The position numbers and the translations under genes were made by a program. Of a stretch of DNA of 38,639 nt, positions 171 to 38,100 are shown one piece after another. The stretch covers positions 1-38,639 of the forward strand of contig JAZUAB010000009.1 in NCBI GenBank assembly GCA_045637745.1, written 5' to 3'. Below the pieces are notes generated by a model, which saw only the letters and a list, made by a program, of their open reading frames with translations, ran no database searches and was not told the DNA's origin. The DNA is from Candidatus Onthoplasma sp. Lineage in GTDB: Bacteria > Bacillota > Clostridia > Christensenellales > UBA1242. Within the stretch, counting starts at the first letter, position 1. Every line of letters starts with the position of its first letter.

Positions 171-767
171 TTATAGAGGACTGCTCGTCTTTAAATATTT
201 ATAAAATGTAGATTTATTCATTTTTAATTTTTGCAAAGCTATGGATAAAGAAATCGCTTTATTTGTATATAACAATACTACCTCTTTATAATTTGATGGC
301 AGCTTATATTTAGGTCTTCCTAAATGTTTGCCTTGCAGTTTTGCAATGCGAATTCCTTCTGCTTGTCGCTTTTTAATATTTTCACGTTCATTTTCAGCAA
401 CAAAGGACAATATTTGTAAAACAATGTCACTAATAAATTTACCTACAAGGTTTTTGCCGTCTATTCTAGTGTCCAACAAAGGCATATCAAGAACAACTAT
501 ATCAACATTAAGCCTATTTACAATATCCTTCCACTCTTCGATAATCATATCATAATTTCTGCCAAGCCTATCAATGCTTTTAATTATAAGTAAATCGCCA
601 CTTTTTAAAAGCGTTTTTAAATTTTGATAATTAGTTCTATCAAAATCTTTGCCACTTTGCTTATCAATAAAAATTTGATTGTCTGATAATCCTTGTTTAT
701 ACATTTCATCCATTTGCCTATCAATGTTTTGATCCCTTGTAGAAACTCTTACATAACCATAATTCAT
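171..767 (-). CDS. Small serine recombinase (resolvase/invertase family) with C-terminal HTH
   Basis: N-terminal YGYVRVSTRDQ catalytic-serine motif, GDLLIIKSIDRLGR, and ENERENIKKRQAEGI. The 198-aa size is typical of Hin/Gin/resolvase enzymes. GTGAGGTG RBS upstream. Confidence 0.9.
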   Translation of the reverse strand: MNYGYVRVSTRDQNIDRQMDEMYKQGLSDNQIFIDKQSGKDFDRTNYQNLKTLLKSGDLLIIKSIDRLGRNYDMIIEEWKDIVNRLNVDIVVLDMPLLDTRIDGKNLVGKFISDIVLQILSFVAENERENIKKRQAEGIRIAKLQGKHLGRPKYKLPSNYKEVVLLYTNKAISLSIALQKLKMNKSTFYKYLKTSSPL

Positions 768-3125: not shown

Positions 3126-6100
3126 ATGCGAAAGATTAAATTACAAACTTCTGAGAAAGTTGCTCCTATGATCTACGCATATACCACTCCAGGTGTTGTG
3201 TATCATGATGGATGGACTAAGATTGGTTATACTGAAAGAGATGTTGATACTAGAATTAAAGAGCAAACTCAAACTGCGGATATCAAGGCAAAAAAGGAAT
3301 GGCAAGACCTGGCAATCTTTGCAGACGGCAAAACAAGGTTTACAGATAAAGAATTTCACTCATACCTTGCAAAGAACGATATAAAACGAAAAGATCCTCA
3401 ACCTGATACTGAAGGATGCCCAGAATGGTTTTATATTAGCGGTGAGGCGTCTTATGCCCTATTTGGAAAGTTTAGAAGAGATTTGGGTGTGTTGCAAACA
3501 TTGGGCGTTGTGCCTTATGTATTAAGAAATGAACAAAAACAAGCGGTGAATCAAACAAAAAATTATTTTTTAGATGATTCTAACAAAACAGAATTCCTTT
3601 GGAATGCAAAACCTCGATTTGGCAAAACATTGTCAACCTACGACCTATGTAAGTCCTTGCCAAATGTACATAAAATTTTAATTGTTACCAATAGACCAGC
3701 CATTGCAAATTCTTGGTACGATGATTATGTTAAATTTTTAGGTACAGAATCTGGTTACTATTTTGTAAGTAATGTTGACGCTTTGAAAACAAGAAAATAT
3801 GTTTTAAGCAGAGAAAAATACCTGGATAATCTATCATCACTACCTAATCATAAAGGATGCATTGAATTTGTTTCATTACAAGATTTAAAGGGCTCTATTT
3901 ATTTTGGAGTAACAGGCGGACATGATAAGTTAAGAGAAGTGGCGGAACTTGAATGGGATGTTTTAGTTATTGATGAGGCTCATGAAGGTGTTGATACCTA
4001 CAAAACTGACGTAGCGTTTGACCGGATAAAAAGAAGATATACGCTACATTTATCTGGAACACCCTTTAAGGCATTGGCTAATGAAAAATTTCCAGCAAAA
4101 GCAATATACAACTGGACTTATGCCGATGAGCAAAAAGCCAAACAGGAATGGGATTCAACTAGTGAAGAGGAAAACCCATATGCCAATCTTCCACAATTAA
4201 ATTTATTCACCTACAAAATGTCAGATATTGTTAGAGATAAAGTAGAACAAGGTGCTGACTTTGATGAGGATGGACAAAATGAAGCATTTTGCTGGGATTT
4301 AAATGAATTCTTTGAAACTAATGCAAATGGTGAATTTGTTCATGATTCTGCAGTAGATAAATTTTTAGATGCTTTAACAGTACAAGAAAAATTCCCATTT
4401 TCAACTAATGATTTACGTGCAGAATTAAAACATACACTATGGCTACTTAAATATGTTAGCAGTGCCAAAGCTCTTGCTAAAAAATTGCAACGTCATGAAG
4501 TGTTTAAAAACTATAAGATAGTTCTTGCTGCTGGCGATGGGAAGTTAGACAACGAAGGAAATTCAGAAAATGTGTATGCATTAGACAAAAATCTTAAAAA
4601 CTCTTATGATAAAGTTGTTGATGCTATTAAAAATTATTCAAGAACTATAACTATCTCTGTTGGTCAGTTAACTACTGGTATTACAATTCCAGAATGGACT
4701 GCTGTAATGATGCTTTCTAATGTAAAAAGCCCATCACTTTATATGCAATCTGCTTTCAGAGCCCAAAATCCATGTTTATTTAATGAAAATGGTTATAGCC
4801 TACGCAAGCAAAATGCATATGTGTTTGACTTTGATCCAGCTAGAACCTTAAACATTGTTGAAGAGTTCGCAAATGATCTTATTGCCGACACTGCTAATGG
4901 CAGAGGTGACACTAATGCCAGAAAACAAAATGTAAAAGAACTACTAAACTTCTTCCCTGTATATGGTGAAGATGACGAAGGCGAAATGATAGAACTTGAT
5001 GCGGAAAAGGTTCTTTCAATGCCTCGTGCAATACACGCAAAAGAAGTTGTAAGACGTGGGTTTATGAGTAATTTCCTATTTCAGAACATTGGAAATATAT
5101 TTAATGCACCAAAAGAAGTTATTGATATTATACAAAAATTTGATCCAGTTAAAGAGCCTGTTGGGGTTAAAGAAGATACAAAGAACGATTTAAATATTGA
5201 TGACAATGGAAATATCATAATTCCTGAAAAACAAATAATTGGAACTGCTAATGATATTTTTGGTGAAAAGATATATGGCGATATTGAAGCAAGCTTAATA
5301 AATTCAGTAGAAGCTATACAAGAAAATACATTATCTGGTAAAAAAGATGAAAAATTAAATTTATTATTAAAAGAATTTCATACAAACATTACTGATACAC
5401 TTGTTAATACAGCAAAGGCAAATTATGGCAACAATCTGTCAAAATCAACACAACAAGCGTTAGTAAGAAAAATTAATACTACTACCGACATGTTGATAAG
5501 AAAACAATTTGCTGATTATCAAATTAACAGTAATCAACTTGAAAATGAAAGAATAAAAGAGATTGAGCAAGCAAAACAATCTGGAAATTCTAACAATATA
5601 CAACAAATTAACATTAATTTTGATGAGAAGAAAAAGCAAATAGAATCAACTTTTAAGTCTTCAATTCAATCGGAAATTAAAAATATTATAGAAAACACAG
5701 GCAAAACCATTGCTGAAACTGTTGAAAAAGACAACAAAGAAAAACAAAAAAATTCAATAATGGATAATGTTAGAGACCATTTAAGAGGGTTTTCAAGAAC
5801 TATTCCTTCATTTATTATGGCTTATGGAGATGAAAATACAACACTTGAAAATTTTGACACAATAATACCAGATGAAGTATTTAAGGAAGTTACCAGTATT
5901 TCGCTTGATGAGTTTAGAAGACTTAGAGATGGTTTTGATTATACCGATGAGAATGGAAAACAAAATCATTATAATGGGTTCTTTGATTCGATTGTATTTA
6001 ACGACTCCATTAAAGAGTTCTTAAAGAAAAAAGAGGAACTTTCAAATTATTTTGACGATAATTCTAAGGGAGATATATTCGACTATATCCCACCTCAAAA

Positions 6101-6497
6101 AACAAATCAAATCTTTACTCCTAAAAAGGTCGTTCAAGAAATGGTTGATAATTTAGAAAAAGAAAACCCAGGATGTTTTGATAATCCAGACCATACATTT
6201 ATTGATTTATATATGAAATCTGGATTATATATGGCTGAAATAGTAAAACGCCTTTTTAGAAGCAGTAAAATGAAAGAATTATATCCAGACGAGAATAAAA
6301 GACTAGAGCATATTTTTGAAAAACAAGTATTTGGTCTTGCTCCAACAGAAATCATTTATAAAATTGCAGAATCCTTTATTTTAGGATTTGCAAAAGATAA
6401 AGGCATAACTAAACATAATTTAAAACATTTTGACGCTTTACCAGATGCTCAAAACGGAACACTTGAATCAAAACTAGATGAGATTTTTAATAAATAA
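3126..6497 (+). CDS. Multidomain protein: N-terminal T5orf172/GIY-YIG-like domain, SF2 (DEAH) helicase/translocase, Asn/Lys/Gln-rich linker, C-terminal methyltransferase-like domain lacking NPPY. Putative restriction/defence subunit.
   Basis: N-terminus WTKIGYTERDVDTRIKEQ...PEWFYI. Walker A PRFGKT (GKT at 3621-3629), VLVIDEAHEG (DEAH at 3972-3983), LSGTPF, QLTTGITIPEW and QSAFRAQNP. The tail from 6111 reads IFTPKKVVQEMV...FIDLYMKSGLY...VFGLAPTEI. The ATG lies 1 nt after the upstream stop codon. Confidence 0.8.
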   Translation: MRKIKLQTSEKVAPMIYAYTTPGVVYHDGWTKIGYTERDVDTRIKEQTQTADIKAKKEWQDLAIFADGKTRFTDKEFHSYLAKNDIKRKDPQPDTEGCPEWFYISGEASYALFGKFRRDLGVLQTLGVVPYVLRNEQKQAVNQTKNYFLDDSNKTEFLWNAKPRFGKTLSTYDLCKSLPNVHKILIVTNRPAIANSWYDDYVKFLGTESGYYFVSNVDALKTRKYVLSREKYLDNLSSLPNHKGCIEFVSLQDLKGSIYFGVTGGHDKLREVAELEWDVLVIDEAHEGVDTYKTDVAFDRIKRRYTLHLSGTPFKALANEKFPAKAIYNWTYADEQKAKQEWDSTSEEENPYANLPQLNLFTYKMSDIVRDKVEQGADFDEDGQNEAFCWDLNEFFETNANGEFVHDSAVDKFLDALTVQEKFPFSTNDLRAELKHTLWLLKYVSSAKALAKKLQRHEVFKNYKIVLAAGDGKLDNEGNSENVYALDKNLKNSYDKVVDAIKNYSRTITISVGQLTTGITIPEWTAVMMLSNVKSPSLYMQSAFRAQNPCLFNENGYSLRKQNAYVFDFDPARTLNIVEEFANDLIADTANGRGDTNARKQNVKELLNFFPVYGEDDEGEMIELDAEKVLSMPRAIHAKEVVRRGFMSNFLFQNIGNIFNAPKEVIDIIQKFDPVKEPVGVKEDTKNDLNIDDNGNIIIPEKQIIGTANDIFGEKIYGDIEASLINSVEAIQENTLSGKKDEKLNLLLKEFHTNITDTLVNTAKANYGNNLSKSTQQALVRKINTTTDMLIRKQFADYQINSNQLENERIKEIEQAKQSGNSNNIQQININFDEKKKQIESTFKSSIQSEIKNIIENTGKTIAETVEKDNKEKQKNSIMDNVRDHLRGFSRTIPSFIMAYGDENTTLENFDTIIPDEVFKEVTSISLDEFRRLRDGFDYTDENGKQNHYNGFFDSIVFNDSIKEFLKKKEELSNYFDDNSKGDIFDYIPPQKTNQIFTPKKVVQEMVDNLEKENPGCFDNPDHTFIDLYMKSGLYMAEIVKRLFRSSKMKELYPDENKRLEHIFEKQVFGLAPTEIIYKIAESFILGFAKDKGITKHNLKHFDALPDAQNGTLESKLDEIFNK

Positions 6498-6526
6498 GAA
6501 CGGACTAACTATCCGTTCTTTTTTAT
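6497..6526 (+). terminator. Rho-independent terminator of the methyltransferase/helicase operon
   Basis: AGAACGGA pairs with TCCGTTCT (8-bp stem, 7-nt loop), followed by a T-run, starting immediately at the stop codon. Confidence 0.8.
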
Positions 6527-6580
6527 TGGATTATTCACTCACGCGTGCGTTATCTATTATATATATTACAAAATAGTTAA

Positions 6581-6631
6581 CCGTCATAGTGTCATATCCG
6601 TCATTAGATGACAGTAGTGACAGTATGACAG
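6581..6631. repeat. Extended imperfect palindrome built from 3 GTCAT and 3 ATGAC/GTGAC elements
   Basis: GTCAT at 6583, 6591 and 6600 mirrors ATGAC/GTGAC at 6608, 6617 and 6625. The elements are exactly symmetric about position 6606. ACGCGTG copies flank the region at 6541 and 6646. Confidence 0.75.
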
Positions 6632-6690
6632 ATATTATATTATTACGCGTGTGCATGCGCATAAGACTCCGATAACTAAATAATTTGTTG

Positions 6691-6720
6691 AGAGAAGATA
6701 TAAATACTTCTCTTTTTATT
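6691..6720 (+). terminator. Second stem-loop terminator, after the palindrome region
   Basis: AGAGAAG (6691-6697) pairs with CTTCTCT (6707-6713) around a 9-nt loop, followed by TTTTTATT. Confidence 0.6.
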
Positions 6721-6734
6721 TGAAAAATATTTTT

Positions 6735-7590
6735 CGAACGGACAAATGCAGTCCGAACGGAATTTATAAAATAATTGTGAATTTTGTTTTCGATATGCCA
6801 AATGGTGGCATATCGAAAATTTTAAAATAAATTTGTCCGATGCACCAAACGTGTGTGCATCGGGATTATTAAAATTTATTTATAACCTGCCCAAATGGTG
6901 GGCAAGTTAGTTTGTTAAAATACCTATAGATTCAAATAAAGTAATAAAAATTCCCCGTATCACAAGCCGTGTGTGATGCGACAATTATATATTTTATTTG
7001 TAAAATATCCCTTGCAGTATCAAATGGTGCTACAGCGAAATTGTTAAAATTTAATTGCAACGTGTCCAAATGGTGGACACATTAACATTGTAAAATGTTT
7101 TCCGATACGACAAATAGTGTCGGAACGAGAATATTAAAATCTTGAAAAATAATCCCGTTACACCAAATGTTGGTGGATCGGTCTTAGTAAAATGAAGGAG
7201 GAATTTATGAAAAAGTTTTCAAAATATTTCCCGAGTGTTCAAACGATGAACAGGCGGGATTAGTAAAATACTTAAAAATAATTCCGTATTGGCAAATGGT
7301 GTCAATGCGAAAGTATTAAAATTCTTAAAAAATATTTCCCGTGTTATCAAATGGTGATAATACGGCTCTAGTAAAATAACTATAAAAATATTCTCCGTAT
7401 TGGCAAATGGTGTCCCAACGGGAGTGATAAAATTTCATTAAAAAGATTTCCCGATGTGCAAAATGCTTGCACAACGGGATTGCTAGAATGAGATAAATTT
7501 TAGGTGTATCAAAGGTTGATATACCTAGTTAACTAGAATAATTACATAACCAAATAAAAATTGGTTTTACCGATGGACTGCAGCCGTCGT
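6735..7590 (+). repeat. Tandem array of about 16 hairpin units (spacing 44-76 bp, mostly about 46-57) with conserved loop and flanks and covarying stems
   Basis: Unit consensus is (T)CCCG-N-variable arm-CAAATGGTG-complementary arm-N-CGGG(A), then TAAAAT/TAGAAT, then an A/T-rich spacer. One example is a perfect 14-bp stem at 6787-6800/6806-6819 with loop AATGG. Hairpin centres lie near 6747, 6803, 6850, 6896, 6968, 7025, 7071, 7115, 7168, 7244, 7297, 7352, 7408, 7464, 7514 and 7579. Confidence 0.85.
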
Positions 7591-7658
7591 TAAAATATAG
7601 CTAAAGTTAAGAACTGATCAATCTTAATGTAGGCACAAAATCTAAAAAAGGAGAAAAA

Positions 7659-8312
7659 ATGAGAGATTTTATATTTGAATTTGAACAAAAACAAGCATTA
7701 AAGTTTAATTTAAAGTTAAATGAGCTTCTATTGCTTGACTACATGTTGAAATTCTTCACATCAGATCAAATTAGAAAAAAACAAAAAGGAGAGAGATTAT
7801 ATTGTAAATTAACCTACAATAAGGTTTTAACGGATCTTCCAATTCTTAGAATAAAGGAAAGGCAATTAAGAAACATGATAATCCAATTAGAAAATAAAGG
7901 TTTTGTAGAAAGGTTATCAGAACTTAAAAACCAAATGTATCTGTATGTTGATTTTGACAGGTTGCTCGGCACTGATTTGCTGTTTGGTTCTAATGGACAA
8001 GCAATAAATTTCCTAAATGTCGGTAAGAATTTGCCAACAATAGATAATTATAATATTAAAAAAATAAAAATAAATGTTACTAACGCGCGTATACAAGAAC
8101 TAGATTTGGATTTGTTTAATAGTGAATTACATAAGCTTTTAAAAGAAAAAGTTAGTAAAGTATCATATGATTTATTCTTTAATAGTATTAAAGCCTGCCA
8201 AGTAGATGCTGATGAAATTATATTTGATGCTAAATATAAAGAGCAGATTGAAAAATCATTTATGAACAAATTTACATCTATTGTAAATGAAGCTGTATCT
8301 AATATAACCTAA
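7659..8312 (+). CDS. Winged-helix protein, putative replication initiator/organizer (RepA_N- or DnaD-like N-terminus)
   Basis: LNELLLLDYMLKFF...LTYNKVLTDLPILRIKERQLRNMIIQLENKGFVERL resembles wHTH plasmid/phage initiator N-domains. Strong AAAGGAG RBS. Repeat arrays flank it on both sides. Confidence 0.4.
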   Translation: MRDFIFEFEQKQALKFNLKLNELLLLDYMLKFFTSDQIRKKQKGERLYCKLTYNKVLTDLPILRIKERQLRNMIIQLENKGFVERLSELKNQMYLYVDFDRLLGTDLLFGSNGQAINFLNVGKNLPTIDNYNIKKIKINVTNARIQELDLDLFNSELHKLLKEKVSKVSYDLFFNSIKACQVDADEIIFDAKYKEQIEKSFMNKFTSIVNEAVSNIT

Positions 8313-8825: not shown

Positions 8826-9044
8826 ATGAAAAGAATTAGAACTATTACAGAAACATTACAAATGCTAAAAACCGAAGATCCAAATACTGGACTTAGCGAA
8901 TTTTTAATAAGAAAACTTGCAAACAATCACAAGATCCGTTCATTTAAGACGGGCAACAAAATATTAGTTGACTACGATTCATTGATGGCGTTCTTGCAAA
9001 GTCAAGATTATGACCTACCAATGGAACAAATCGTGGTTAGATAA
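8826..9044 (+). CDS. Excisionase-like HTH DNA-binding protein (Xis/DUF6462-like)
   Basis: 72 aa reading IRTITETLQMLKTEDPNTGLSEFLIRKL...FKTGNKILVDYDSLMAFL, immediately upstream of the integrase. GGAGG RBS. Confidence 0.65.
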   Translation: MKRIRTITETLQMLKTEDPNTGLSEFLIRKLANNHKIRSFKTGNKILVDYDSLMAFLQSQDYDLPMEQIVVR

Positions 9045-9057
9045 AAGGAGAAAACAT

Positions 9058-10449
9058 ATGGCATGTATACAAAAAAATAAACTACAAGACGGTTCAGTGT
9101 CTTACCGAATTCAAGTAAAGGCAAAGAACATACGAACTGGAAAGTTTGAAGCCAAATCAATCACTTGGCGCAAACCTTTAGATATAACCGAAAATCAAGC
9201 AAAGAAAGAACTTAATCGTATCGCCGTCGATTTAGAAGAAAAGTTCAATAAGCAACTTAATGGCCTTCTTTCACTAGACAATGAAGTAACCTTTATTGAC
9301 TATGCTGAAAGGTGGCTAGAAAAAATCAATCATACTCGCTCACTCAACTACTATATACGAGGTCGAGATAGTATAAGAAAATTCCATAAATACTTTGGCA
9401 ATATTAAACTAAATCAAATAACGCCCGTTATGGTGCAAGGTTTTATAGACGAAATGGTGTCTAAAAAGTATGAAAAGAAATCAGCAATACTTACTGGCGA
9501 CATCAATCAGTATTTAAAGTCGCATCGTATCAAGCAGATTGATATTATTAGGCAAAGTGGACTTTCAAAATCCATTTTCGTATCAGCAAATGCTAAACAT
9601 AGCATAAGAATTGAAAATGCTCAAAAGATATGCGATGCGATTGGAATTAACTACGATGATTACTTTACAACAGAGATAAAAAGCCAACATTATGCCAAAG
9701 AAACAGTTTTAAGATACAAAAGGATGTTACACACAATACTAGCCGATGCTAAAAGGCAAAGGCTGGTGGAACATAATTTTGCATCAAGCGACTATTTAAC
9801 GCCAATTAAAGGCTATAAAAAAGAAATTAAAATACTTAATGATAAAGAGGCAAAGGTTCTAGCCAACTATTTACACACCGAACCTAATCCAAGATGGAAA
9901 ATCGCATTGTTTATAGTATTATTTATGGGATTAAGGCGTGGCGAACTTGCTGGCCTAGAGTGGAAAGATATTGACTATGAAAACAAAACTATGACAATCG
10001 CAAGGTCGGTGCAAGATATTCCAGGCTTTGGCCTTATCACAAAAGAACCTAAAACCGAAAACTCAAAACGCACAATCTCAATGCCAAATAAACTAATTAA
10101 TTACTTAAAGGAATATGAAATTTATTGGCACGAACAAAAAGCATATCTTGGCGACCGCCTTGGCAATACCGACCGATTATTCTGCACCGAAGATGGCACA
10201 AACATCTCCCCTGGTATGTTTATAGTGTGGCTACATAAAACCCTAGACAAAGCAGGCTTGCCACAAGTCTCACTCCACTCACTACGCCACACAAACATAA
10301 CCTTACAACTAATCGCAGGTGTAGATATGAAAACAGTCTCCACCCGTGCAGGCCACTCAAAAGCATCAACTACTAGCGACTTCTATAGCCACTTCATCAA
10401 GAACTCCGACATCCACGCCAGCGAAATAATTAATAAAATTTTTGAATAA
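9058..10449 (+). CDS. int: Tyrosine site-specific integrase (Tn916/phage-integrase family) with an internal XRE-like HTH insertion
   Basis: Catalytic signature GLRRGELAGLEW (R), LHSLRHT (HxxR) and TSDFYSH (Y). The start was moved from 9010 to the ATG at 9058, which follows AAAAGGAG. Confidence 0.9.
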   Translation: MACIQKNKLQDGSVSYRIQVKAKNIRTGKFEAKSITWRKPLDITENQAKKELNRIAVDLEEKFNKQLNGLLSLDNEVTFIDYAERWLEKINHTRSLNYYIRGRDSIRKFHKYFGNIKLNQITPVMVQGFIDEMVSKKYEKKSAILTGDINQYLKSHRIKQIDIIRQSGLSKSIFVSANAKHSIRIENAQKICDAIGINYDDYFTTEIKSQHYAKETVLRYKRMLHTILADAKRQRLVEHNFASSDYLTPIKGYKKEIKILNDKEAKVLANYLHTEPNPRWKIALFIVLFMGLRRGELAGLEWKDIDYENKTMTIARSVQDIPGFGLITKEPKTENSKRTISMPNKLINYLKEYEIYWHEQKAYLGDRLGNTDRLFCTEDGTNISPGMFIVWLHKTLDKAGLPQVSLHSLRHTNITLQLIAGVDMKTVSTRAGHSKASTTSDFYSHFIKNSDIHASEIINKIFE

Positions 10450-10513
10450 AGTAAAAATAATGATGACATTTTATCAATTTTATGATATAATTTCTTCATA
10501 CAAAGGAGTTGTT

Positions 10514-11620
10514 ATGGCATACAAAGAAAGAAAAAATATTTATAAAAAAATTGAAGAAAAAAGAAATAGACCATTAATTGTCTATGTAACATCTATAAGA
10601 CCTAATCTTTCCAGCAATATGGGTGGTGATGCCATCGCAGAAATAATAGAGCAAATTCAACTAATTCCTGAAGACAAAAAAGAAGTTGATTTTATGATTA
10701 TAAGCAATGGCGGTGATGCCATTGTGGCTCTTAGAATAATAAGTATGTTAAGAGAGAGATTTGACAAGGTGTCTGTATTGTTGCCATATGTTGCTTATAG
10801 TGCAGCAACAATCTTATCTTTAGGTGCGGACGATATAGTAATGCATCCATTTTCGAACCTTGGACCCATAGATCCACAGCTCACAACAATTAAAAAGAAT
10901 CAGCAAGGACAAACAGAACAAAGAAGTTTTAGCTCGGAAGATTTAAGGAACTTTATTGATTTTATAAAAACAGATGTTGGCGTTACAGACCAACAACATT
11001 TAATTACTGCTATATCTCCTTTGCTAAATGATATAGGAGCATTACCAATAGGGAACGCTAAGAGAAGCCAGCAATTATCTCTATCTTTAAGTGAAAAAAT
11101 GCTTAATTTACATTTGCAAGACAAAAACAAGAGTAAAAATATTGCTAAACAATTAAATTCTTCATATTATCATCATGGGTATGCTGTCGGAAGAAAAGAA
11201 GCTCAAGAAATTGGGCTTGATATTGTTATTCCAGACAATGAACTGGAAAATTTATTATGGGAAGTTTGGCAAGACTTTTCTAATGAAATGAACGCAAATA
11301 CAGTATTTGATCCCGTAAGAGAACTTTTTACAAATCCAGAATCAAGTGAAATTTTATCAAAAGTTCCAGTCGTGGAAATTCCTGCTAACACTCCACAACC
11401 TTTGATACAAAATTTGTATGTACAATTATCTCAACAGGCTGCAAGAGTTGAAAATAAACCAACAATCAGAATGAAACATTTAATTGCATCTATTGAAAGC
11501 ACAAATTTAGCCAAAGCTTCATATGCTAATAGTGATATAGCTTATTGGAGGAACATGGATATGAGTATAGGTTTTAATTGTACTATATTCCCAACAGGTT
11601 GGACAAAATATAATCAATAG
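10514..11620 (+). CDS. ClpP/SppA-fold serine protease of the SDH (serine dehydrogenase proteinase) type
   Basis: RPLIVYVTS...FMIISNGGDAIVALRIISMLRERF...LLPYVAYSAATILSLGADDIVMHPFSNLGPIDPQ. The start was moved to the ATG at 10514, which follows AAAGGAG. Confidence 0.7.
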   Translation: MAYKERKNIYKKIEEKRNRPLIVYVTSIRPNLSSNMGGDAIAEIIEQIQLIPEDKKEVDFMIISNGGDAIVALRIISMLRERFDKVSVLLPYVAYSAATILSLGADDIVMHPFSNLGPIDPQLTTIKKNQQGQTEQRSFSSEDLRNFIDFIKTDVGVTDQQHLITAISPLLNDIGALPIGNAKRSQQLSLSLSEKMLNLHLQDKNKSKNIAKQLNSSYYHHGYAVGRKEAQEIGLDIVIPDNELENLLWEVWQDFSNEMNANTVFDPVRELFTNPESSEILSKVPVVEIPANTPQPLIQNLYVQLSQQAARVENKPTIRMKHLIASIESTNLAKASYANSDIAYWRNMDMSIGFNCTIFPTGWTKYNQ

Positions 11621-11629
11621 GAGGATAAG

Positions 11630-11824
11630 ATGAATAATAATTTCATAACAAATTCATTAAAGTTTAATGAATATAATCCTTTTACAATAAGTTCAACGCA
11701 TACTGATATTGTTCGGATTAGTGGAACAATTCCTAAAGAAGAAGTGGAAAAATTGTCTAAAAGGAAAGAAAAACCAACCACAAGAGATATTAAAATAAAA
11801 AAAAATAAAAAGACGCCTAATTAA
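11630..11824 (+). CDS. Small hypothetical protein (64 aa, Lys-rich C-terminus), probably co-transcribed with the protease
   Basis: A strong TAGGAGG RBS lies 6 nt before the ATG, there is a 9-nt gap after the protease stop, and a terminator overlaps its own stop codon. Confidence 0.55.
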   Translation: MNNNFITNSLKFNEYNPFTISSTHTDIVRISGTIPKEEVEKLSKRKEKPTTRDIKIKKNKKTPN

Positions 11825-11838: not shown

Positions 11839-11915
11839 TGGTGTGAGTAGGCAGATTTGAACTGCCGGCCTGTCGCTTAGGAGGCGACCGCTCTATCCAG
11901 CTGAGCTATACCCAC
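11839..11915 (-). tRNA. tRNA-Arg (anticodon CCU) with encoded CCA
   Basis: The minus strand reads GUGGGUA-UA-GCUC-AGCUGGAUA-GAGC-G-GUCGC-CUCCUAA-GCGAC-AGGCC-GGCAG-UUCAAAU-CUGCC-UACUCAC-A-CCA. This is a full cloverleaf with one G-U pair in the acceptor stem. Confidence 0.9.
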
Positions 11916-29189: not shown

Positions 29190-32100
29190 TTATCTCACTT
29201 TCATTCTTGTTCTTAACCAGATTACTGTTCCAATTAAACCAACAACAATTAAAACAATTATTACAATCAATATAATTGCCACAGTATTTAATGGTTCCTT
29301 AATTGTAAAGTTAAGACTTGTTAAAACATTCCCACTATCACCAACTAATTGAACGTAATATTCTCCAACACCTGTTATTTCTCTTTCAACAAGACCTGTT
29401 GTTGTATGATCAATACGCATAATCTCTTGTCCATTTACAACTAAGATGCACTCTCCAACCTGATCATAAACATTTTCCGCGTTAAATTTTAATACAACAG
29501 GTTTTGTTGTTTTTTCGCCAGGCTTAATTGATGTGGTAATGGTAGGCTTTGCGTTATTTAATGTAAATGAAAATTCCACTTCGCGAGTAGGCAATAATGG
29601 ATCGTCATTTACTCGATATAACATTTTAAACTTCATTTTACCTTGAGTAGCAGTTCCAAATGTCTCTACCAAACGATCATAAGTTACCAACTTGTTGTAC
29701 ACATCAACACCACCAACATTTGCCTTATCTTGCAACATTCCAACAAATTTGCTTGTAACATCAATTTCCGTCGTCTTTAGTACGCTAAATACCGACACTA
29801 TTTCATACCCATAAATAGATGTGAAATCAAGAGCGTTTCTAGCCTCATTTGGATTAAGTATTGTGAATATTAGTTGAGTTGAAACTTCTTCTCCAGTGCT
29901 TAATAAATCTGCAGTAATATTAACAACATACGTTCCATAATCTTTAAAAATATATCTTAATGAATTTGTAGGATGCTCATAACCTTTATAGTTTGGAGTT
30001 CCATTTAAGTTCACATTAATTTCAATAGAGCTAGGAACATAATTGTTAAGCCCAGTAATCTCATTGTAGTCATTTATCTGTAAAGTTACAGGCTTATCAT
30101 AGTAAGCATATTGAATAGGCGCGCTACCAATACTTGAATCATCATCTCCGACCTTAACAGTATACAATATATCATTTTTCTTCATCAGTACAATTGTGAA
30201 TCTGTCTAACGTACTAGTTGACGTCTTGAAATATTGTACATTACCGGCATAATCTTGAATCTTCAACGTATAACTTCCACTATTCTTAAAATTAATTTCG
30301 CTTAAATCATTATTTGCATTACCCACAATTCTGCTAGAAGACTTTTCATCGTTATTATAGTATATATCTATAATTATTCGATTGTGTTGTTCTAATGGGT
30401 TTGTGTTATAGTGATTTTTGTTATACGAACTAAATTTCAACTTATAGTATTCTGCATCTGCATCGTATATCGATTTAGATGTTCCGCTTGATAATAAGTT
30501 GTGTTGATCTGCTTGTTCGCTTCCAGTCATAAATAATAATTGCGATAAAATACTTGTAGAAGCATCAGTTTCACGCACTTCCATTGTTACTACAAATGTG
30601 CGATAATTAGATCTATGCACATGATACAGCCTTATAATTGCTGTTCCTGTCATAAGTTCACAATAATCTGCCTTCACTCCATTATCTTCATTACTATGTA
30701 ATATTAATGCTTGGGCATAATTGCTGTCGTTTACATCAATAATTTTATTCTTTGCAATATACATTTTAATTGCTGTTTGTTTGCCAAAACTGTTAATTGC
30801 AGTCTTCATATGACTTTCATTATCAAAGCCCAAGCTTTCACACTGCCTTAACAAATTACTTTCGCCAAACGTCTCAATAACTTCATCTAAATTGGTAAGC
30901 GTTGCTGGATCGCAAATATTATCGTTAGCGTCACGAACTTCATATAGTCCAGAAATAGTAGTTGACATCGCGATACCATACACACGAGATGCTATCCATT
31001 CATCAGCCTTATCTTTAATAGTGACTACGAAAACATATTTACCCGTGTTGTCAGGGTTAGGTGCAAGTGGATAACTTTCTTCACCTCCCTTTAACAATTG
31101 TTTAGGTGGATCGTTTTGGTTACGAAATTCATATAGGTCATAAGTATAAATAAAGTAATCGCTGGTTGATTTGGTCCACGAAATATTAACTGTTTCAGCT
31201 ATTAAATCTTTATAGTACTTTCCATCACGCAAGTCAATTGTATTGTACTCCTCCGTATTATTAAATGTGGATTTAATCATTGAGATTTTATCTTCATAAT
31301 TGGTGTTTTCAATTCTAAACAATGTTGACGTCGTATCAATCACAACTTTATATGTATGCGTAGCATCACTTTCATCAAGCAATTTTATTTCTACATCAAA
31401 ATTACGGCAAGAACCTTCATCTTCTGGATTTAGAGGTGTGTCAGCATATAAGGTGATATACGCGTATTTGCCTTTCTCCTCGTAACCGTAATGAGTGCCT
31501 TCCGTTGCTGGACCGCTATCTAATAGCACATCCGCTGTATAAAAGTCAATGTTATATGAAATCTTGATATCTGTTGCCGTATATAACACACCAGTAGGTT
31601 GATAAACATTGTCTGGCAAATCAATATATTGATAGTGGTAATAACCTTCAGTGGTTGAAATCCTCAACTTATAATCGTTATTTGCAATATCAGTTAATGT
31701 GATTAAATATTGAATATTGTCGGCTAAATCTAGTCTGTCCGAAGCAGTTTCACTACGCAATTTAACTTCAGTAATATTATCATAATTCTGCCCCTCTGGA
31801 ACTGTAAGCGTAGTTAAGCCATTATCAAAACTTGCGTTGTATGATAATGTGTGTTCATCTCCATTTGTCGCCTTATATTTCACTTCAACCTTTTTTACAT
31901 ACCACCAAGTATTTGTATCAATTTTATTATTTACTTCGCTTAATAATATATACTTCTGTCCAAATTCTCCTTTCTTCCATGACAAGTCAGTCTTCAGCCT
32001 ATAATCTTCGCTATTATATGTATTGATGGCTAGCAAATAGGTTTTTCCATATACGTCCACAAATTCAAGTCTGTAGTTACCCTGGTTTTTAACAATTTCT

Positions 32101-35100
32101 AATATTTCTTCTGCAATATCTTCAGGCTTAGATTTTGAGTTTATGTATATCTTTTTAATATCACTAGCACTGCTGGACGCATTGTAAATATTAATATTAC
32201 CATAATACTGTTTACCTGACGATGCCAATCCATTGACTGTAATACCATTATCATCAATCTCAATAAAGGCTTTTTGGTTATCGCTTGTTAAAACTGGTGT
32301 AAAATTCATAGTCTCATCAGTTTTTTCATCATTGCCAATTAATTTACCTGTAATCGTTAATGATGGACTTGTTGGTGTCGATGGTGTAAAGTATACCACA
32401 TACTGTGTTAAATTTCCCGCTTTGTCTTTTTCAACAATTTCGTAATATTTGCCCTCTATGTTTTGATACTGTTGATTTGATCCTGCTATAATAAGCCCCG
32501 CATATTTGTCCTTTTCACTTCCAGTAAATCGATTCATGCGATATTCTGTTAAAACTTCGTTAAATGTATAAAAGCCTGTTGAATTACCAAAATATCTATC
32601 ACTTATAGGTATTAATCCCATACGTTGTTTAGCGTCAATATCGTTATTAAAGTCCAATTCACGATAATATATTGCATATAAATCTTCATGTTTAAATTCG
32701 GTTGTATCATCAATAGCAATTGCATACATTGCTTGACTGGCATTATCGAATTGTGAATTATTAACAAATTGATAATAAAGATTATTTGTCAATCCATAGT
32801 AGTCGCCTATAGAATTAGTGTTACGATATGCAAAATTTGCATTGATATTTATATCTTCATTTTCGCTGGCACCGGACAACCACTTATGATAATCTTCAAA
32901 ATATGCATTTTGATTTGATAATATCGCATTTAAGTTTTGGTCGTCTGGAGTTCTATCAACATATACCGTATATACTGATTTGTAGAAGTCTGTGCTTACA
33001 AGACTTACATCTTCGTTTGCCCCGTTTTGAGTTGCGTATTTATAATTATAGTATTGAGATGCGGTATTATTTAATATATATTGAACATTTATAGTATAAA
33101 TATATTCCTTATAACCAATAATTTGTCCAGATGTGGCATCTGTTTCAATATCTGTAGGCAACTTGATAATCCATTTGTCTGGATTTGTTCTATCAATTAT
33201 TGAATCGTTATTCCAAGGAAGGCTGGAATTTACTATTCCATTCTTTAATTCAAACCACAGTTTATTATCGGTTCCATCTATGTTAGAACGATATATTGAA
33301 AAATTCTTTTGGTCCACTTGAGCATTGTAAGATGATAAGTCTTCCAAGTTAAGTTCAAAATCAACATATTCTTGATTTGTATATAACTCTTTGCCTGTTG
33401 CATATGTTGGAGTGCTAGTTAGATTTTTATCCTCATTTTTAGCATAAGCATATACATCAATATTTGGCTCTTGCTTAGTTAATTTAATGCCAAATGTAAA
33501 TGTGTTGTAGTCGGTTATATTATTAGCATCGTTGTGCTCTGTTCCTACAAGGTCATTGATTACAAAAATATACTCGCCCGGCAAACTTAACGCATTGTCA
33601 TTAGAATGTGTTCTGGCATTCATATATTCAGCCAGCAACCCTTTCATTCCCTCATCATCAGTTTTAAAATCTAAATCAATATACTCGTCGGCTTTATATT
33701 CACGCTTATCCATCAATGTCATTGTTGATTCGCCATCATTTATTACCGATTGAGGCAATATTTTATATGTATCTTTAAAATATATGCTTAATTGTAGTTT
33801 TAATGTGTTATATGATGTGGCGATTATTTGTGACGACGTTTCGGTATATTTACCTGTCACATATTTACCGGTAGGAACTTTAATGCTTGTTGGCATTTTG
33901 TTTGTTTCTACATATACCTTATATTGCATATTTTTAGATAAATCTGTAGGATCTACAATTAATGTTTTAGGACTTAATCCTTGTTTAGTAAAATTGTCAT
34001 AGTGAACTTCAGCATCACTTGTAGGCATTGACGCATGGATAAATTGTCCCACAATCTTTTCGCTTACATTGGATAATGAATATCCTACTATTGCATTTCT
34101 ATCAACAAAGAATGCATATGAAAAGTTTTCGTCAGAATCAGCATTATTGCCAGTTCTAAGTGTTCTTGTAATAATATATAATCCGGTTTGTGTTACGCTA
34201 CGCGATACTAAAGATTCCCCTTCATAATATGTCTCAAAACCCAAATTTATAGGATTGCTACGATAAATGGTACCGCCATCTCTGGTAGCCTCACTATAAT
34301 CTTTAACCTCAATTGTGTCACCATTTTTAGTTAAAATTTCATTTGTTGTAATATATTTATAAGGATAATAGGGTTCTGTCAATTTATCAGTAACACCCTC
34401 TAATTCGTTGCCACTCATCAACTTATAATAATGATACACCACGCTTATTACTTCAAAGTTGTCTTCAGTGTTTGGCTTGATCCATTCAAATACGAATTTG
34501 CCGTCATCAGACGCTTGAGCGATGTCACACACATCAATACTTAGTGTATCTCCCAACTCTCCAGTTGACAATTCAGACCCGTCAACCTTTGCGTTAGACA
34601 CCCTGTCTGCCGGATAAACTTCATTGTTATATTCACTAGTATTAGTAGCCGAACTTGAATATATGGTTCCCAATGCTTTATCTGGGGTTATTACTATATT
34701 GAAGTTAATATTGGTATTGTTGTCAACTTGGTTTCCTCCCACAACCGATACGGTGTAACGTCGGGCGCCAGTTTTGTCAACCAATATTGTAAGATTTGAG
34801 TTTGTGTAATTAGTAAATAGCCTATCTGCGACACTATCAGCCTGCCATCCAGAAGCAATGCCACCATAATATCTAGTTTGTTTCTCGCCATATTTTGTAA
34901 TGCGGTAATAATTTTCATCTGCCATTTCTTTAAGTTCTACATATTCATGTTGAACCGCATATAACTGCGTGTCACTGACCGTAATAAATAGACTTAAAAT
35001 ATTGTTCCAGTTATTGCCCGACACTTGATAATAGTCTTTATAATATTCAGTTATGCTGTCGTCATCCTTTGTAAGTATGCTATAAATAATAGGATCTGGA

Positions 35101-38100
35101 GACTCGGTATCTGCTGACTTTGTAATAGAACTTAAGTCAATTGCTTTATGCGTACCCCATTCAGTATGAACTGGAGCCGCCACCTTTTCACCGTTATTAT
35201 AAACAATTTCGCTTGTCATAAATGAATCTATCTTGCCGTCGCCATCAGTATCTGTCCAACCGGTCAATTCGTTAATATTAACATTATCATCGTTATTAGT
35301 ATCTGTCCAACTAGTCAACTCGTCGCTGTCAATCTCGCCATCTTCATCTGCATCTTTCCAGCCTATCAACTCATCTACAGAAACTATGTCATCTTTATTG
35401 ATATCATTCCAGGTTATATAGTCACCATATGTTGCCGACACAATTGCATCGGTGCGGTCTATCACCATAATATATCTTAAAATATTGCCAGCCTGATCTT
35501 TTAATTCAAATTCATATATTCCTTGATTTGTTAAAACATTATCGCTTAACAATGCGCCACTTAACGTTGCTGGTCTATCTATTGATATGGCTTTTGATGA
35601 AGTTCCCGCTACATATCTATTAGTTATATACGTATAGGTTACATCGCCTGTGGTTTCTTCTGGTTTTTTAATCTCATTATCAGTTTTTACAAATGGGGTA
35701 TAAACATATGTTGCACTAATTTGAGCTCTACTAGCCTTGTCACTCCAACCAATTGTAAAATTAGTGTTAATTGTGCCTTTGTCTGTGTGTTTAATATATT
35801 TCATTTGGGCATCACGACCAATAGTATATATAGCCTTGTTGTCTAAGATTGAAGTAGTTACTTGATAAACTTCTAAACCAGAAATTGCATCTTTATCTAT
35901 TGTAAAATAACTATAGGTTCTTGTTGCCGACTTTTCAACTTCTAACACAATCATATATGAATCACTATCGGTTATAATTGTTTCTTTGGTGTATTCCCTG
36001 TGTCTAATATTGGTGCTTGCTCCACCATTTATCACGCTTAAATATGTCTCTTCTTGAGGGTATGCTTTGTTTGTTGTATAATATAGTTTTCCTGTTATTT
36101 GAGATTCGAATACGCCTCTATCTTCCCAAGTTGCATATACATTTTGATTAGTAAATTCACGCGCATAAAAGTTTGTTCTATCACCATTTGCATTATTCCC
36201 TTCCGTTTTGTATAGCTCAAGTTGAGGTGTTGCAGACGTTATTTGGAATGCAAAATATTGTGCGCCTTTATCATTTGCAGTAGCGGCAGCAGAGTCAAGT
36301 TTATATTCATAACAAGCTTTTACAAGATAATAGCCTGGAGCAGTAAATGTAGTAACTTTGGTAAAATTGATTTCTTCAAAATCTGTTAGAATAGTTTCAG
36401 AAGTATATGCCCCTGAATAATAATAATATTCACTATTATCTAAATCATATTCATCATTTAGTGTTAACCATAAGCCTCTATCGGTTTTTGAGTATTCACT
36501 TTCGCTAGGTAATGTGGCTGTAAAATCAGATATACTTCCAGCCTCGCTAGTGTTAACTACCTTTCCTGTCTTCTCAGTGCCAGCAACCAACTCATAATGT
36601 ATGCCTAACGCGTCACCATCACGTTCCTTAGCCGAACTTGTAAATCCATTAAGCAGAATAAACATTGTGCCATTTTGAACAATTTTCAAATCCACCATGT
36701 CGGCACTGATAAATCCAGCCTTAGAGTACTTTAATTGATAACCATATATATCTAATGACATATTGCCAAAAGCTAAGTCTTGTTTGTCAATAATCAGATT
36801 GGTCGCATCTTTGGTATAAATATACTTAATGTCAAATGTATATTGTCCATTATCAGCAAACATTAACGATAAAATCTTATTATCTTTTTCATCTTCATTC
36901 TCAGGCTTCGTAAAATCATCAACCCGATAGTATTTGGATGTTCCCTCGTCATATATAGTTGTTGTTACAACGATTTCTCTACTAGCATCATCATATACAA
37001 TATCAACATTTTTGTGCAAATCGCCACTAATATGCGTATAACTTATTTTATATCTAGTGTAGTCGTATGTAAGAGTTGGATAATTATAATTATCGCCATA
37101 GTTGAAATAATATTGACGATTAGTTGCAATGCTTGTTGATTTTACTGTAGCATTTTCAAATGTAGGTTTAGATGTATATTGATTGTCATTCACTTCAACA
37201 GTATCGCTATATGAAGATTCTAACAATAGATAAAAATCAAATTCAGCCTTCAATGCCTTACCATCTACCATATAAGATATACTAATCTCATAATGCCCCT
37301 CAGCTCCATCAATAAACCAAGTAAAATCTTGATATTGATTGTTGTATGTGCGTGAACTAGGTATATCGGTTAAAACTGTTCCATCTCTAGTCACCTTAAC
37401 TGAAACATATTGCATTTCAGCACCAACATTTAGATAGTATTTGCCATCTGAATAATACGCTCCGTCAGAATAGTAGTCTTTAATGTCATTACTATTCGTA
37501 TCAATCCAGCCGGTCAATTCAGTAGAATTAATAGTGGTATCATTTGTATCAACCTTTCCATCAGCATTTGTATCAATCCAGCCGGTCAATTCTACCGCTT
37601 CAACAACTCCCTCAGTGCCAGCGTCGGTGCGATCTGTCCAGCCTGTAAGTTCGCCTTCATCAATTTGACCATCTTCATCCGTATCAGTCCAGCCTGTTAG
37701 TTCAGTTGCATCAACTATATCGTCATTGTTTGTATCTGTCCATTTTAACGATGGTGTCCAGCCTGGAAGATTATTAAGTGTGCCGGTCCAGCCAAACAAC
37801 TCTCCAGCTTCAACCTCTCCCTGAGTGCCAGCGTCGGTGCGATCTGTCCATTCTATCACATTCTCGTGGACCCAATTTGCATTCAACTCCGTAATATCAA
37901 CTTCGTTATCTTTGCTTCCAGCATCGGTACAGCCTGGAAGATCATTTAAATCTCCAGACCAACCACTTAATTCATCAGTGGTTATTTTATAATCCTTATT
38001 TTTATCATCCCAACGTATTGCACCCTTGTCAGTCCAGCCTGTTAATTCACTGACATCAACTATTCCTTTGTTTTTCGTATCAGTCCAGCCTGGAAGCCCC

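Follow-up and report, generated by a model that had tools for sequence, protein, structure and literature searches.

The 38,639-nt stretch of contig JAZUAB010000009.1 from Candidatus Onthoplasma sp. analyzed here (the window) carries a non-coding array of about 16 hairpin modules, which is conserved, acts in cis and heads the mobility operon of a small integrative island. Judging from its sequence features, we tentatively interpret this array as a same-sense battery of structure-dependent promoter modules for that operon. The anatomy of the array, the strict spacing, register, orientation and covariation of its units, the terminator-like hairpin upstream and the sharing of the array across islands are direct observations. 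Coordinates are positions in the window unless they are given for an L-number, which denotes a related locus compared with it.

The array extends from position 6729 to 7596 and comprises 14 canonical units of 48 nt and two variants, all on the plus strand. The 14 canonical units can be aligned gap-free across 48 columns, showing a mean identity of 68% and diversified stems, and a hairpin precedes every TA(A/G)AAT box. The canonical stem of 13 bp is formed by columns 4-16 with columns 22-34, and the loop AATGG lies within a near-invariant 9-mer, CAAATGGTG, at the centre of the hairpin. In canonical units, the TA(A/G)AAT box starts exactly 15 nt downstream of this 9-mer. Between 6729 and 7600, the box is present 16 times on the plus strand versus three times on the minus strand, and dinucleotide shuffles of the array contain 3.2 ± 1.6 boxes (maximum 8). 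The unit period is 44-57 nt in the window and up to ~67 nt in related arrays. Tandem Repeats Finder reports just 2.8 copies, because the stems differ from unit to unit. No credible open reading frame (ORF) was found between the terminator of the cargo operon (6496-6524) and the gene of the 217-aa protein p217 (7659-8312), where the longest stop-free stretch is 71 aa. A coding function is excluded by the period, which is not a multiple of three, and by the frame of the loop, which varies among units. Alignment, shuffles and ORF scan thus agree with a preliminary description of this DNA as a tandem hairpin field that contains no ORF and in which loops and flanks are conserved while the stems covary, and its statement that the array is neither a CRISPR, nor a set of identical iterons, nor a run of canonical terminators was also borne out.

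The hairpin is real. In the window units, 80.8% of the alignment cells pair, compared to 59.1% in shuffles (0 of 500 reach the observed value) and 30-46% with slid partners, and double changes are present at 10 of 13 pairs. A covariance model built from the window units recovered 189 units in 43 related loci. For the 125 distinct units from these loci, 82.9% of the cells pair (63.6% in shuffles, at most 51% when slid), double changes were observed at all 13 pairs, and the covariation score is 0.503 versus at most 0.14 for slid partners. Covariation of the arms, previously noted from individual examples, is therefore statistically supported against both shuffled and slid controls, in the window and in the family. 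Pairs 9/29 and 10/28 are frequently open and form an internal loop, and the CG clamps (7/31 and 8/30) and the CA/TG closing pairs are near-fixed.

The strand on which the hairpin folds had been proposed from an excess of G-T over A-C mismatches, read as the mark of a plus-sense RNA or of plus-strand single-stranded DNA (ssDNA). The 14 units of the window contain 11 G-T or T-G pairs and 8 A-C or C-A pairs, and the 188 distinct family units identified using a sequence-only hidden Markov model contain 173 G-T and 184 A-C pairs (p = 0.6). Two A-C pairs of the window are internal, although all had been placed at stem ends, and the pair 7573/7585, listed as G-T, is actually A/C. The wobble asymmetry, which does not hold in these counts, was the sole basis of the argument for a plus-sense RNA or plus-strand ssDNA. 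Pair 6/32 is C-A in 71 units, a wobble on the minus strand only, whereas the upper stem shows the opposite lean toward the plus strand (47 versus 25). The RNA folding z-scores are −12.2 for the plus strand and −15.3 for the minus strand, both far below shuffles, and the plus strand as RNA is 92 kcal/mol lower than its shuffles. With as many wobbles for one strand as for the other, and stable folds for both, the folding strand is unreadable from the sequence.

The conserved parts of the unit that do not pair sit in the register of a sigma-A promoter, which had been overlooked. A column profile was prepared from 206 units extended by 20 nt on each side, with the box taken as the −10 element. The extended consensus is AAAAA-wt-TTT-yCCG-N6-CAAATGGTG-N6-CG(A/G)nA-n-T-g-n-TAAAAT-N5-H-R-AAAA, in which the following elements can be distinguished.

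−56 to −47: A5N2T3 tract, A in 81-87% (−56 to −52) and T in 69-92% (−49 to −47) of units
−47 to −17: palindrome of 31 nt, within a module of ~55 bp in total
−36 to −28: near-invariant 9-mer CAAATGGTG at the centre of the palindrome
−15: T in 86% of units
−14: G in 50% of units
−12 to −7: box, T93 A96 A77 A91 A88 T94 (percent)
−1 (column 50): base before the start, never G
+1 (column 51): predicted start 7 nt past the box, purine in 83-95% of units, followed by AAAA

Conservation of the box is highest at −12, −11 and −7 and lowest at −10, and this pattern is a signature of sigma-A promoters. According to the UP consensus, the segment from −56 to −47 is the position of a distal UP element. The distance from the 9-mer to the box is fixed, with 219 of 220 units aligning without indels. 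The purine in column 51 is found in 83-95% of the units in each of the three main spacing classes and in 89% overall. Because the −1/+1 pattern is present in all three classes, it is anchored to the box and not to the next unit. A consensus promoter scan detected no plus-strand promoter at the units. Minus-strand promoters using the TTG of the inverted loop were rejected, as they are no more numerous than in shuffles (11 versus 8.8 ± 3.3) and their −10 parts are unconserved.

A two-unit pattern scan of one genome per species yielded 41 loci, and a scan of metagenomes added 17 more. About 55 homologous arrays were recovered, each containing 3-16 units in a single orientation. The hosts of the 41 scan loci are nearly all recorded as uncultured Clostridia, Christensenella, Catabacter or 'Caccovivens' gut metagenome-assembled genomes, and all are Christensenellales-like gut Clostridia, a lineage with Christensenella and Catabacter as cultured relatives. 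The two-unit pattern had no matches in viral contigs, and blastn of the array found nothing in plasmid or phage collections. Wherever it is visible, the first gene after the array is a small DNA-binding gene followed by mobility genes (relaxase and/or xis, recombinase), in four contexts.

p217 first (14 genome-scan loci), then an excisionase-like gene and a tyrosine integrase
77-aa ribbon-helix-helix (RHH)-like protein first (7 genome-scan loci), then MobL relaxase (PF18555), xis and integrase
154-aa RHH-like protein first (2 genome-scan loci), then MobL relaxase (PF18555), xis and integrase
157-170-aa RHH-like protein first (6 genome-scan loci), then a large serine recombinase

We infer the RHH assignment from a sequence pattern and one weak profile match. 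Among the four families of first genes, the lone match linked two of the RHH-like ones, weakly and at their N-termini (E = 6.6e-4), and hhalign found nothing linking p217 to the RHH-like families. When p217 homologues (43-94% identity) were fetched by protein alone, the array was present upstream on the same strand in six of six. The arrays of the additional metagenome loci all fall into these four contexts. Islands with four unrelated first genes have units in common, with stem types that recur partly in a conserved order, and a k-mer comparison revealed no non-coding motif other than the array common to the island types. An origin of transfer (oriT) shared outside the array was also considered and rejected: the MOBQ-like motif of L012 (AAAGTGCCTTACGATTT), similar to the nick region of pSK41, does not occur in p217-type islands and has an orientation opposite to expectation.

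The family contains at least 86 distinct arm types, while loop, box and flanks are near-invariant. This turnover can be followed between the window and L042, whose p217 proteins are 94% identical. Terminator, repeats, flanks, loops and boxes are almost identical in the two loci, whereas several stem cores have been swapped wholesale, units have been gained or lost, and the leftmost units have been replaced by other repeats. Together with the chimeric unit 13 (see below), these swaps indicate that hairpin cores turn over fast, partly by conversion, with pairing kept. Unit spacings fall into classes of ~46, 56, 66, 76 and 87 bp, which differ by about one helical turn. Eight class-2 units (in the minus-strand array of L008 and in L001, L028, L033 and L037) have a hairpin whose loop is inverted, CACCC(A/C)TTG, together with a box of the TAAATT type; this loop could kiss the AAUGG loops of ordinary units. 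In L047 (2132-3724), the RHH-like gene and the MobL relaxase are fused in one ORF of 530 aa, and on the reverse strand of L037 (~1170-1960) part of a relaxase gene adjoins a truncated RHH gene; both are island copies that have decayed or been rearranged, but in which the array is retained.

The level at which the palindrome is selected is indicated by the first unit. In 33 distinct arrays examined, nearly all first units come immediately after a terminator-like hairpin with a T-run, and they precede the first box. They have 9.09 of 10 pairs formed, compared with 8.62 of 10 in internal units, and their stems are diverse. Being upstream of every box of its array, the first unit cannot be transcribed from any array promoter; since it is still paired, the palindrome is selected at the DNA level, unless read-through matters. 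This argues against a purely RNA-level role. With the same proviso, the hairpin is selected as a fold in single-stranded or extruded DNA and as part of a hairpin-plus-box module.

The units of the window and the block that follows them are listed below.

6729-6776, plus strand: unit 1, stem type aacgga/tccgaa, loop CAAATGCAG, TAAAAT at 6767-6772
6785-6832, plus strand: unit 2, perfect 13-bp stem, TAAAAT at 6823, also detected as an inverted repeat
6832-6879, plus strand: unit 3, loop CAAACGTGT, TAAAAT at 6870
6878-6925, plus strand: unit 4, TAAAAT at 6916
~6950-7006, plus strand: variant unit 5, hairpin CGTATCACA/TGTGATGCG, loop AGCCGTG, TAAAAT at 7001
7007-7054, plus strand: unit 6, TAAAAT at 7045, stem core wholly different from that of its L042 orthologue
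7053-7100, plus strand: unit 7, TAAAAT at 7091
7097-7144, plus strand: unit 8, TAAAAT at 7135
7150-7197, plus strand: unit 9, TAAAAT at 7188
7192-7263, plus strand: mini-ORF inside the array, strong Shine-Dalgarno (SD) sequence AAGGAGG at 7195-7201, ATG at 7207
7226-7273, plus strand: unit 10, TAAAAT at 7264
7279-7326, plus strand: unit 11, TAAAAT at 7317
7334-7381, plus strand: unit 12, TAAAAT at 7372
7390-7437, plus strand: unit 13, TAAAAT at 7428, chimeric, with a 5' arm identical to that of unit 11
7446-7493, plus strand: unit 14, loop AAAATGCTT, box TAGAAT at 7484, also detected as an inverted repeat
7496-7543, plus strand: unit 15, loop CAAAGGTTG, box TAGAAT at 7534
7548-7628, plus strand: promoter-proximal block, with a hairpin at 7548-7566, the second variant unit at 7569-7596 (hairpin 7569-7590 with loop ACTGCAG, box TAAAAT 7591-7596), position ~7603 as the predicted +1, and a leader hairpin near the 5' end at 7606-7628 (loop ACTGATCAA)

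In variant unit 5, the distance between hairpin and box exceeds that of canonical units, and this unit is kept in L042. The 5' arm of unit 13 pairs poorly with its own 3' arm, whereas the L042 orthologue is better paired, which indicates a recent conversion between units. The promoter-proximal block has the same logic as the units but other hairpins. It is almost invariant and gap-free in 13 loci, whose proteins are ~36-94% identical to those of the window. Both hairpins show compensatory changes (T.G / A-T / G-C, and TTAAGA/TCTTAA versus CAAAGA/TCTTTG), and the leader hairpin, which starts 4 nt past the predicted +1, covaries.

The mini-ORF runs across unit 10 and ends at a TAG immediately before the TAAAAT of this unit. 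SD-ATG or SD-ATG-TAA elements within or after arrays were also found in L040, L008, L022, L037, L001 and L012. At these recurrent sites, a short ORF or a bare start-stop (AAGGAGGTGnTGAAATGTAA) follows; the peptide is unconserved, and the ribosome-binding signal is what recurs. Given the SD sites and the leader hairpin after the proximal box, the plus strand is probably transcribed.

The array is embedded in a conserved backbone with the following features.

6496-6524, plus strand: intrinsic terminator ending the cargo (defence) operon, identified by a terminator scan; left edge of the conserved backbone
6579-6631, between the two terminators: cluster of short direct and inverted repeats (CCGTCAT, GTGTCAT / ATGACAG, GTGACAG), kept in L042
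6690-6721, plus strand: second terminator-like hairpin with a T-run, GAGAGAAG-N9-CTTCTC-TTTTTATTT, directly before unit 1
7659-8312, plus strand: p217, 217 aa, first gene past the array, N-terminal winged helix
8826-9044, plus strand: excisionase-like HTH_17 protein of 72 aa, with matches below curated cut-offs, ~75-80% identical in homologous islands
9010-10449, plus strand: tyrosine integrase of 479 aa, last backbone gene of the operon faced by the array

The cargo terminator (AAGAACGGAC...GTTCTTTTTT) is near-identical in L042 (~6785-6815) and L040 (3341-3370) despite different cargo, and marks a sharp boundary between variable defence cargo and conserved backbone; it may therefore be a cargo-exchange junction. 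Where visible, the upstream cargo is mostly defence-related, with examples being restriction-modification systems of type I and other types, Dcm methylases and helicase-nucleases. Repeats of 7-8 bp analogous to the 6579-6631 cluster are present in L040 (GTGTCAC, 3536-3640) and L042 (GTGGCAC, ~6980-7200), with a motif that differs by island subtype, and the GTCAT/ATGAC repeats are plausible candidates for operators or iterons of the winged-helix protein. An imperfect palindrome followed by ATAAG (TTACGCGTGTGCATGCGCATAAGACTCCG) at 6643-6671 of the window and three copies of (T)GCCTTA(A)CGATTT in L012 (1395-1600) loosely resemble the MOBQ nick region of pSK41 (CGCATAAGTGCGCCCTTACGGGATTT, L044 ~10190-10240). 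These MOBQ-like sites could be the real oriT of the islands or a chance resemblance.

Searches of Pfam, PHROGs, NCBIfam and PDB profiles assigned p217 to no significant family. A fold search with its AlphaFold model (pLDDT 71) returned generic winged-helix matches, all with E ≥ 0.013, and the N-terminal domains of RepA_N initiators are found among many MarR and ArsR folds. The Rep-like label given earlier to the product of 7659-8312 is thus neither supported nor excluded. In one p217 subfamily (L009, L011, L016, L018, L019, L023, L032, L038 and L040), a conserved upstream ORF of 18 codons (MKIKNLQKEHVIYATKNL-like) is located ~40 nt before the p217 start and overlaps its start codon out of frame, which suggests translational coupling or control of p217. 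The tyrosine integrase is long, and an HTH_26 signal of the Cro/C1 type, weak and under the Pfam cut-off (E = 0.0064), is located between its SAM-like and catalytic domains. The island adjoins a tRNA-Arg(CCT) gene (11839-11915), and no direct repeat of the tRNA-Arg end that could represent attL/attR was found in the window. Between integrase and tRNA gene, a right-hand cargo slot (10442-11824) encodes an SDH-family ClpP-like serine protease (392 aa) and a 64-aa ORF; this slot contains DUF6883 proteins in L042 and L065 and other genes in L043 and L063. A Pfam search of the island genes detected no relaxase. At the edges of the window, there are a small serine resolvase (171-767, minus strand) and an ORF of 3148 aa (29190-38636, minus strand), which runs off the right end.

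As promoters, the modules would be sites at which host RNA polymerase initiates, weakly and additively, and reads rightward into p217, xis and int. The 9-mer could be the docking site of a lineage-specific trans factor, for instance an activator, an alternative sigma factor or some other protein, with its gene in the host or in a helper element. Such a factor would explain why unrelated islands keep the same 9-mer, and is suggested by the array being the sole non-coding module shared across unrelated first genes within one host lineage. The arms would be selected for pairing within one strand, which would display the 9-mer in a hairpin loop beside the −10 box. This pairing would most plausibly take place in single-stranded or strongly underwound DNA, as following conjugative entry, during rolling-circle copying or once the island has been excised. 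In a module transcribed from the preceding one, the same hairpin would become a 5'-proximal stem-loop of the transcript.

Several observations weigh against a battery of promoters. We know of no precedent for 16 tandem promoters, or of an obvious advantage in having them. The promoter model alone leaves the need for intrastrand pairing unexplained, and the role of the hairpin is its weakest and most inferred step. The −35 position reads AAATGG and matches TTGACA at none of six bases; sigma-A alone would therefore depend on the extended −10 element, and G-14 is present in just half of the units. At its third position, the box has A or G in 90% of cases and T in 8%, whereas the usual sigma-A consensus has T there, although A or G is compatible with drift from an ancestral A. 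The eight class-2 units, with hairpin and loop inverted relative to the box, are awkward for an oriented −35-like 9-mer. Finally, in the ssDNA promoters of the Frpo type both boxes are located in the stem, whereas the −10 box of the array lies outside the duplex.

On a more far-reaching view, the array would represent an unrecognised class of portable, structure-dependent control or establishment modules for mobile DNA, a possibility that we consider doubtful. Here, a lineage-specific factor acting with host RNA polymerase or primase would recognise the 9-mer, displayed by the hairpin beside a −10 box that is single-stranded or melts easily, only when the island is single-stranded or torsionally stressed. 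If so, excision, integration or complementary-strand synthesis would be switched on at the moment of transfer, and the array would be a shared 'handle' for the co-mobilisation of defence-cargo islands with or without a relaxase of their own.

The main alternative, possible though we would not expect it, is that the array is an ssDNA element, that is, a hairpin priming or establishment field (similar to single-strand origins, sso, or single-strand initiation sites, ssi) on the strand transferred or displaced during mobilisation or rolling-circle replication. Host primase or RNA polymerase would start the complementary strand beside each hairpin and extend it rightward over the mobility genes. 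Both this function and that of a leader or promoter region of the downstream gene had been among the options of the preliminary description. An ssDNA field would account for intrastrand pairing that is kept even in the first unit, beyond the reach of array promoters, and for the missing RNA-type wobble bias. The array is the sole non-coding module common to relaxase-bearing and relaxase-less islands, as expected of a host-specific exchangeable ssDNA module, and in ssoA origins, too, some motifs of loops and flanks are conserved alongside parts conserved as structure only. The DnaG primase of Firmicutes has been reported to prefer the template sequences 5'-TTA and 5'-CTA, corresponding to TAA and TAG on the plus strand, which would fit the A or G at position 3 of the box. 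In two of the four island types, the MobL relaxase follows right after the array, and the RHH-like proteins are placed like aux1 and aux2 of pLS20, downstream of oriT (PMC5313138, PMC5675868). If the nick were left of the array and the template strand were transferred, as in pLS20, the array would enter last, and rightward primers could copy the whole element. On the other hand, T-15/G-14, the A5N2T3 tract and the non-G −1 with purine +1 are features of duplex promoters that a priming site does not predict, and the flanking terminator and the SD mini-ORFs are left unexplained. Known sso and Frpo elements are single long hairpins with promoter boxes in the stem, not sets of 3-16 short ones. Furthermore, the sole MOBQ-like motif found in this comparison (that of L012) points the other way, and the island of the window has no relaxase, which counts against an oriT function as well.

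A duplex-DNA binding array for relaxosome accessory or regulatory proteins, in the manner of a centromere (sopC), an operator array or the accessory region of an oriT, is unlikely. The binders would be the adjacent RHH-like or winged-helix protein or a factor of a helper element, and a small DNA-binding gene does follow every array with a visible downstream gene. The oriT of pLS20 contains three direct repeats and an inverted repeat to which Aux1 and Aux2 bind (PMC5675868), and in relaxase-bearing islands the array occupies the position of the pLS20 oriT. The spacing classes differing by about one helical turn and the A-tracts, which suggest bent DNA, are also in line with this function, but the quantised spacing may merely reflect duplication of a ~10-nt A-tract block. 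Sequence-specific binding needs no complementarity of the arms, yet the arms covary strongly, and four unrelated adjacent proteins would all need to read the same 9-mer. Moreover, general relaxase biology implies that tandem functional nick sites would abort transfer.

We consider it improbable that the array functions as RNA, either as a long leader or unit-sized hairpin RNAs whose AAUGG loops titrate a protein (a CsrB-like sponge), or as an antitoxin- or guide-like RNA (type III toxin-antitoxin, TIGR-like). Identical loops on diversified stems are a design that avoids misfolding between neighbours, and the low folding energy of the plus strand, the modest G-U excess of the upper stem, the SD mini-ORFs and the leader hairpin past the last box are features at the RNA level. 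However, the first hairpin is fully kept behind a terminator and upstream of the first box, an overall G-U bias is absent, and the promoter-register conservation of the unpaired parts is unexplained. No relevant Rfam match was obtained even at E ≤ 10, and Pfam finds no ToxN-like, Cas, Nop/Tas or RNA-binding protein among the island genes of the window. CsrA binds a GGA motif, which the array loop does not contain, and its units have neither the box C/D motifs nor the paired, non-palindromic spacers by which TIGR arrays are characterised.

A non-functional, selfishly expanding tandem repeat, in which templated (quasi-palindrome) mutation and inter-unit conversion rather than selection keep the arms complementary, could account for the gain and loss of units, the stem cores swapped among close relatives and the chimeric unit, but is hardly credible given ~55 arrays in the same position and orientation beside proteins down to ~36% identity, at least 86 arm types with near-invariant loop, box and flanks, and an array in six of six p217 homologues sampled by protein alone.

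In Christensenellales-like gut Clostridia, these islands recurrently carry defence genes, among them those for restriction-modification. As the sole non-coding module shared by the four island types, which differ in recombinases and accessory proteins, the array provides a signature for finding such islands in metagenomes and is the most likely control point of their excision and mobilisation. If its units are structure-dependent promoters or priming sites, they would represent a new and compact architecture, with the upstream element presented by a hairpin, and a Gram-positive counterpart to the ssDNA promoters of proteobacterial plasmids. The array also illustrates that covarying stems overlaid on DNA-level promoter signals can mislead the discovery of RNA motifs.

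In the literature searched, we found no description of such arrays, and several known classes of repeats were rejected. In contrast to CRISPR, where near-identical repeats alternate with unique spacers that are not self-complementary, the variable parts are complementary hairpin arms, and Pfam revealed no Cas domain in the flanking genes. Type III toxin-antitoxin loci of the ToxIN type have near-identical repeats of ~34-45 nt, followed by a terminator and a toxin of the ToxN/AbiQ family. This class had been suggested earlier for the array, which has no ToxN-like toxin, units with 68% identity and four unrelated downstream genes. Integron attC sites, whose R/L boxes bound ORF cassettes beside intI and attI, were dismissed, as the units are not separated by ORFs, the integrase reaches 29 bits against a cut-off of 265 for integron integrases, and the same arrays also adjoin serine recombinases. 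At gathering thresholds, the Rfam families yielded only a tRNA in the window, and within 6450-7700 all matches up to E = 10 were far below the family gathering scores. REP/RAYT elements, canonical terminators and protein-coding repeats were likewise rejected. The stem-loop arrays of TIGR systems are similar in being tandem, variable palindromic stem-loops with conserved intervening motifs on gut metagenome contigs (PMC12045711). However, TIGR units are ~36 nt long, and the array has no box C/D, no non-palindromic dual spacers of 8-12 nt and no Nop-domain Tas protein nearby.

The sopC centromere of F and iteron fields resemble the array in their direct repeats of ~43-55 bp with an internal inverted repeat and in the adjoining small DNA-binding gene. 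Their repeats are near-identical since the protein reads the sequence, whereas the arms of the array vary but stay complementary, and this variation, together with the four unrelated adjacent proteins, led us to reject an iteron or centromere field. Two island types match the gene order of the pLS20 family, with non-coding repeats followed by an RHH-like gene and a MobL relaxase (PMC5313138, PMC5675868), and the array is directly upstream of the RHH-like and relaxase genes in L001, L012, L034, L052, L053 and L057. However, the p217-type and serine-recombinase-type islands have no relaxase for which the array could be the oriT of a MobL system. The pLS20 oriT, which spans 362 bp and contains TGTGCAT/TGGTACCA sites and a nick region rich in GC, has no likeness to the units in sequence or architecture, and a comparison of the array with its nick region revealed no similarity. 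The EGeRS of Firmicute mobile elements are long, structured and conserved non-coding sequences preceding establishment operons, but are not tandem hairpins (PMC8708921).

The array shares more with three other systems. Sigma-A promoters of the extended −10 type (TGn-TATAAT) that carry an UP element have the same −10 pattern, A/T tract, non-G −1 and purine +1; of their TG, T-15 is present in 86% and G-14 in half of the array units, and the orientation of the array is fixed toward the downstream operon as in tandem or extended −10 promoters. In contrast to these promoters, the array consists of 3-16 tandem copies with a 9-mer at −35 that is not TTGACA, a covarying palindrome from −47 to −17, and A or G instead of T at position 3 of the box. 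The function of the Frpo/ssi3 promoters of F and ColIb-P9 and of the promoters of the phage N4 virion RNA polymerase depends on an intrastrand hairpin. Like the array, they belong to mobile DNA with a single-stranded or highly supercoiled state, and their stems are conserved as structure rather than sequence. Frpo is one long hairpin with −35 and −10 in the duplex, whereas the box of the array is 4 nt outside a 13-bp hairpin and has no complementary partner in the unit flanks. N4 promoters require the phage RNA polymerase and have stems of 5-7 bp at about −12, and neither N4 promoters nor Frpo (cited in PMC8708921) are arrayed. The single-strand origins ssoA and ssoU of rolling-circle plasmids and the G4-type priming signals are likewise non-coding, orientation-specific, host-restricted and exchangeable between replicons, and are recognised by host RNA polymerase or primase. 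In these elements, loop and flank motifs are conserved and the remainder is conserved as structure only, but they are single large folded domains of ~150-200 nt rather than tandem 48-nt modules. Thus, although the array lacks at least one defining feature of each, its closest counterparts appear to be extended −10 promoters, structure-dependent promoters and single-strand origins.

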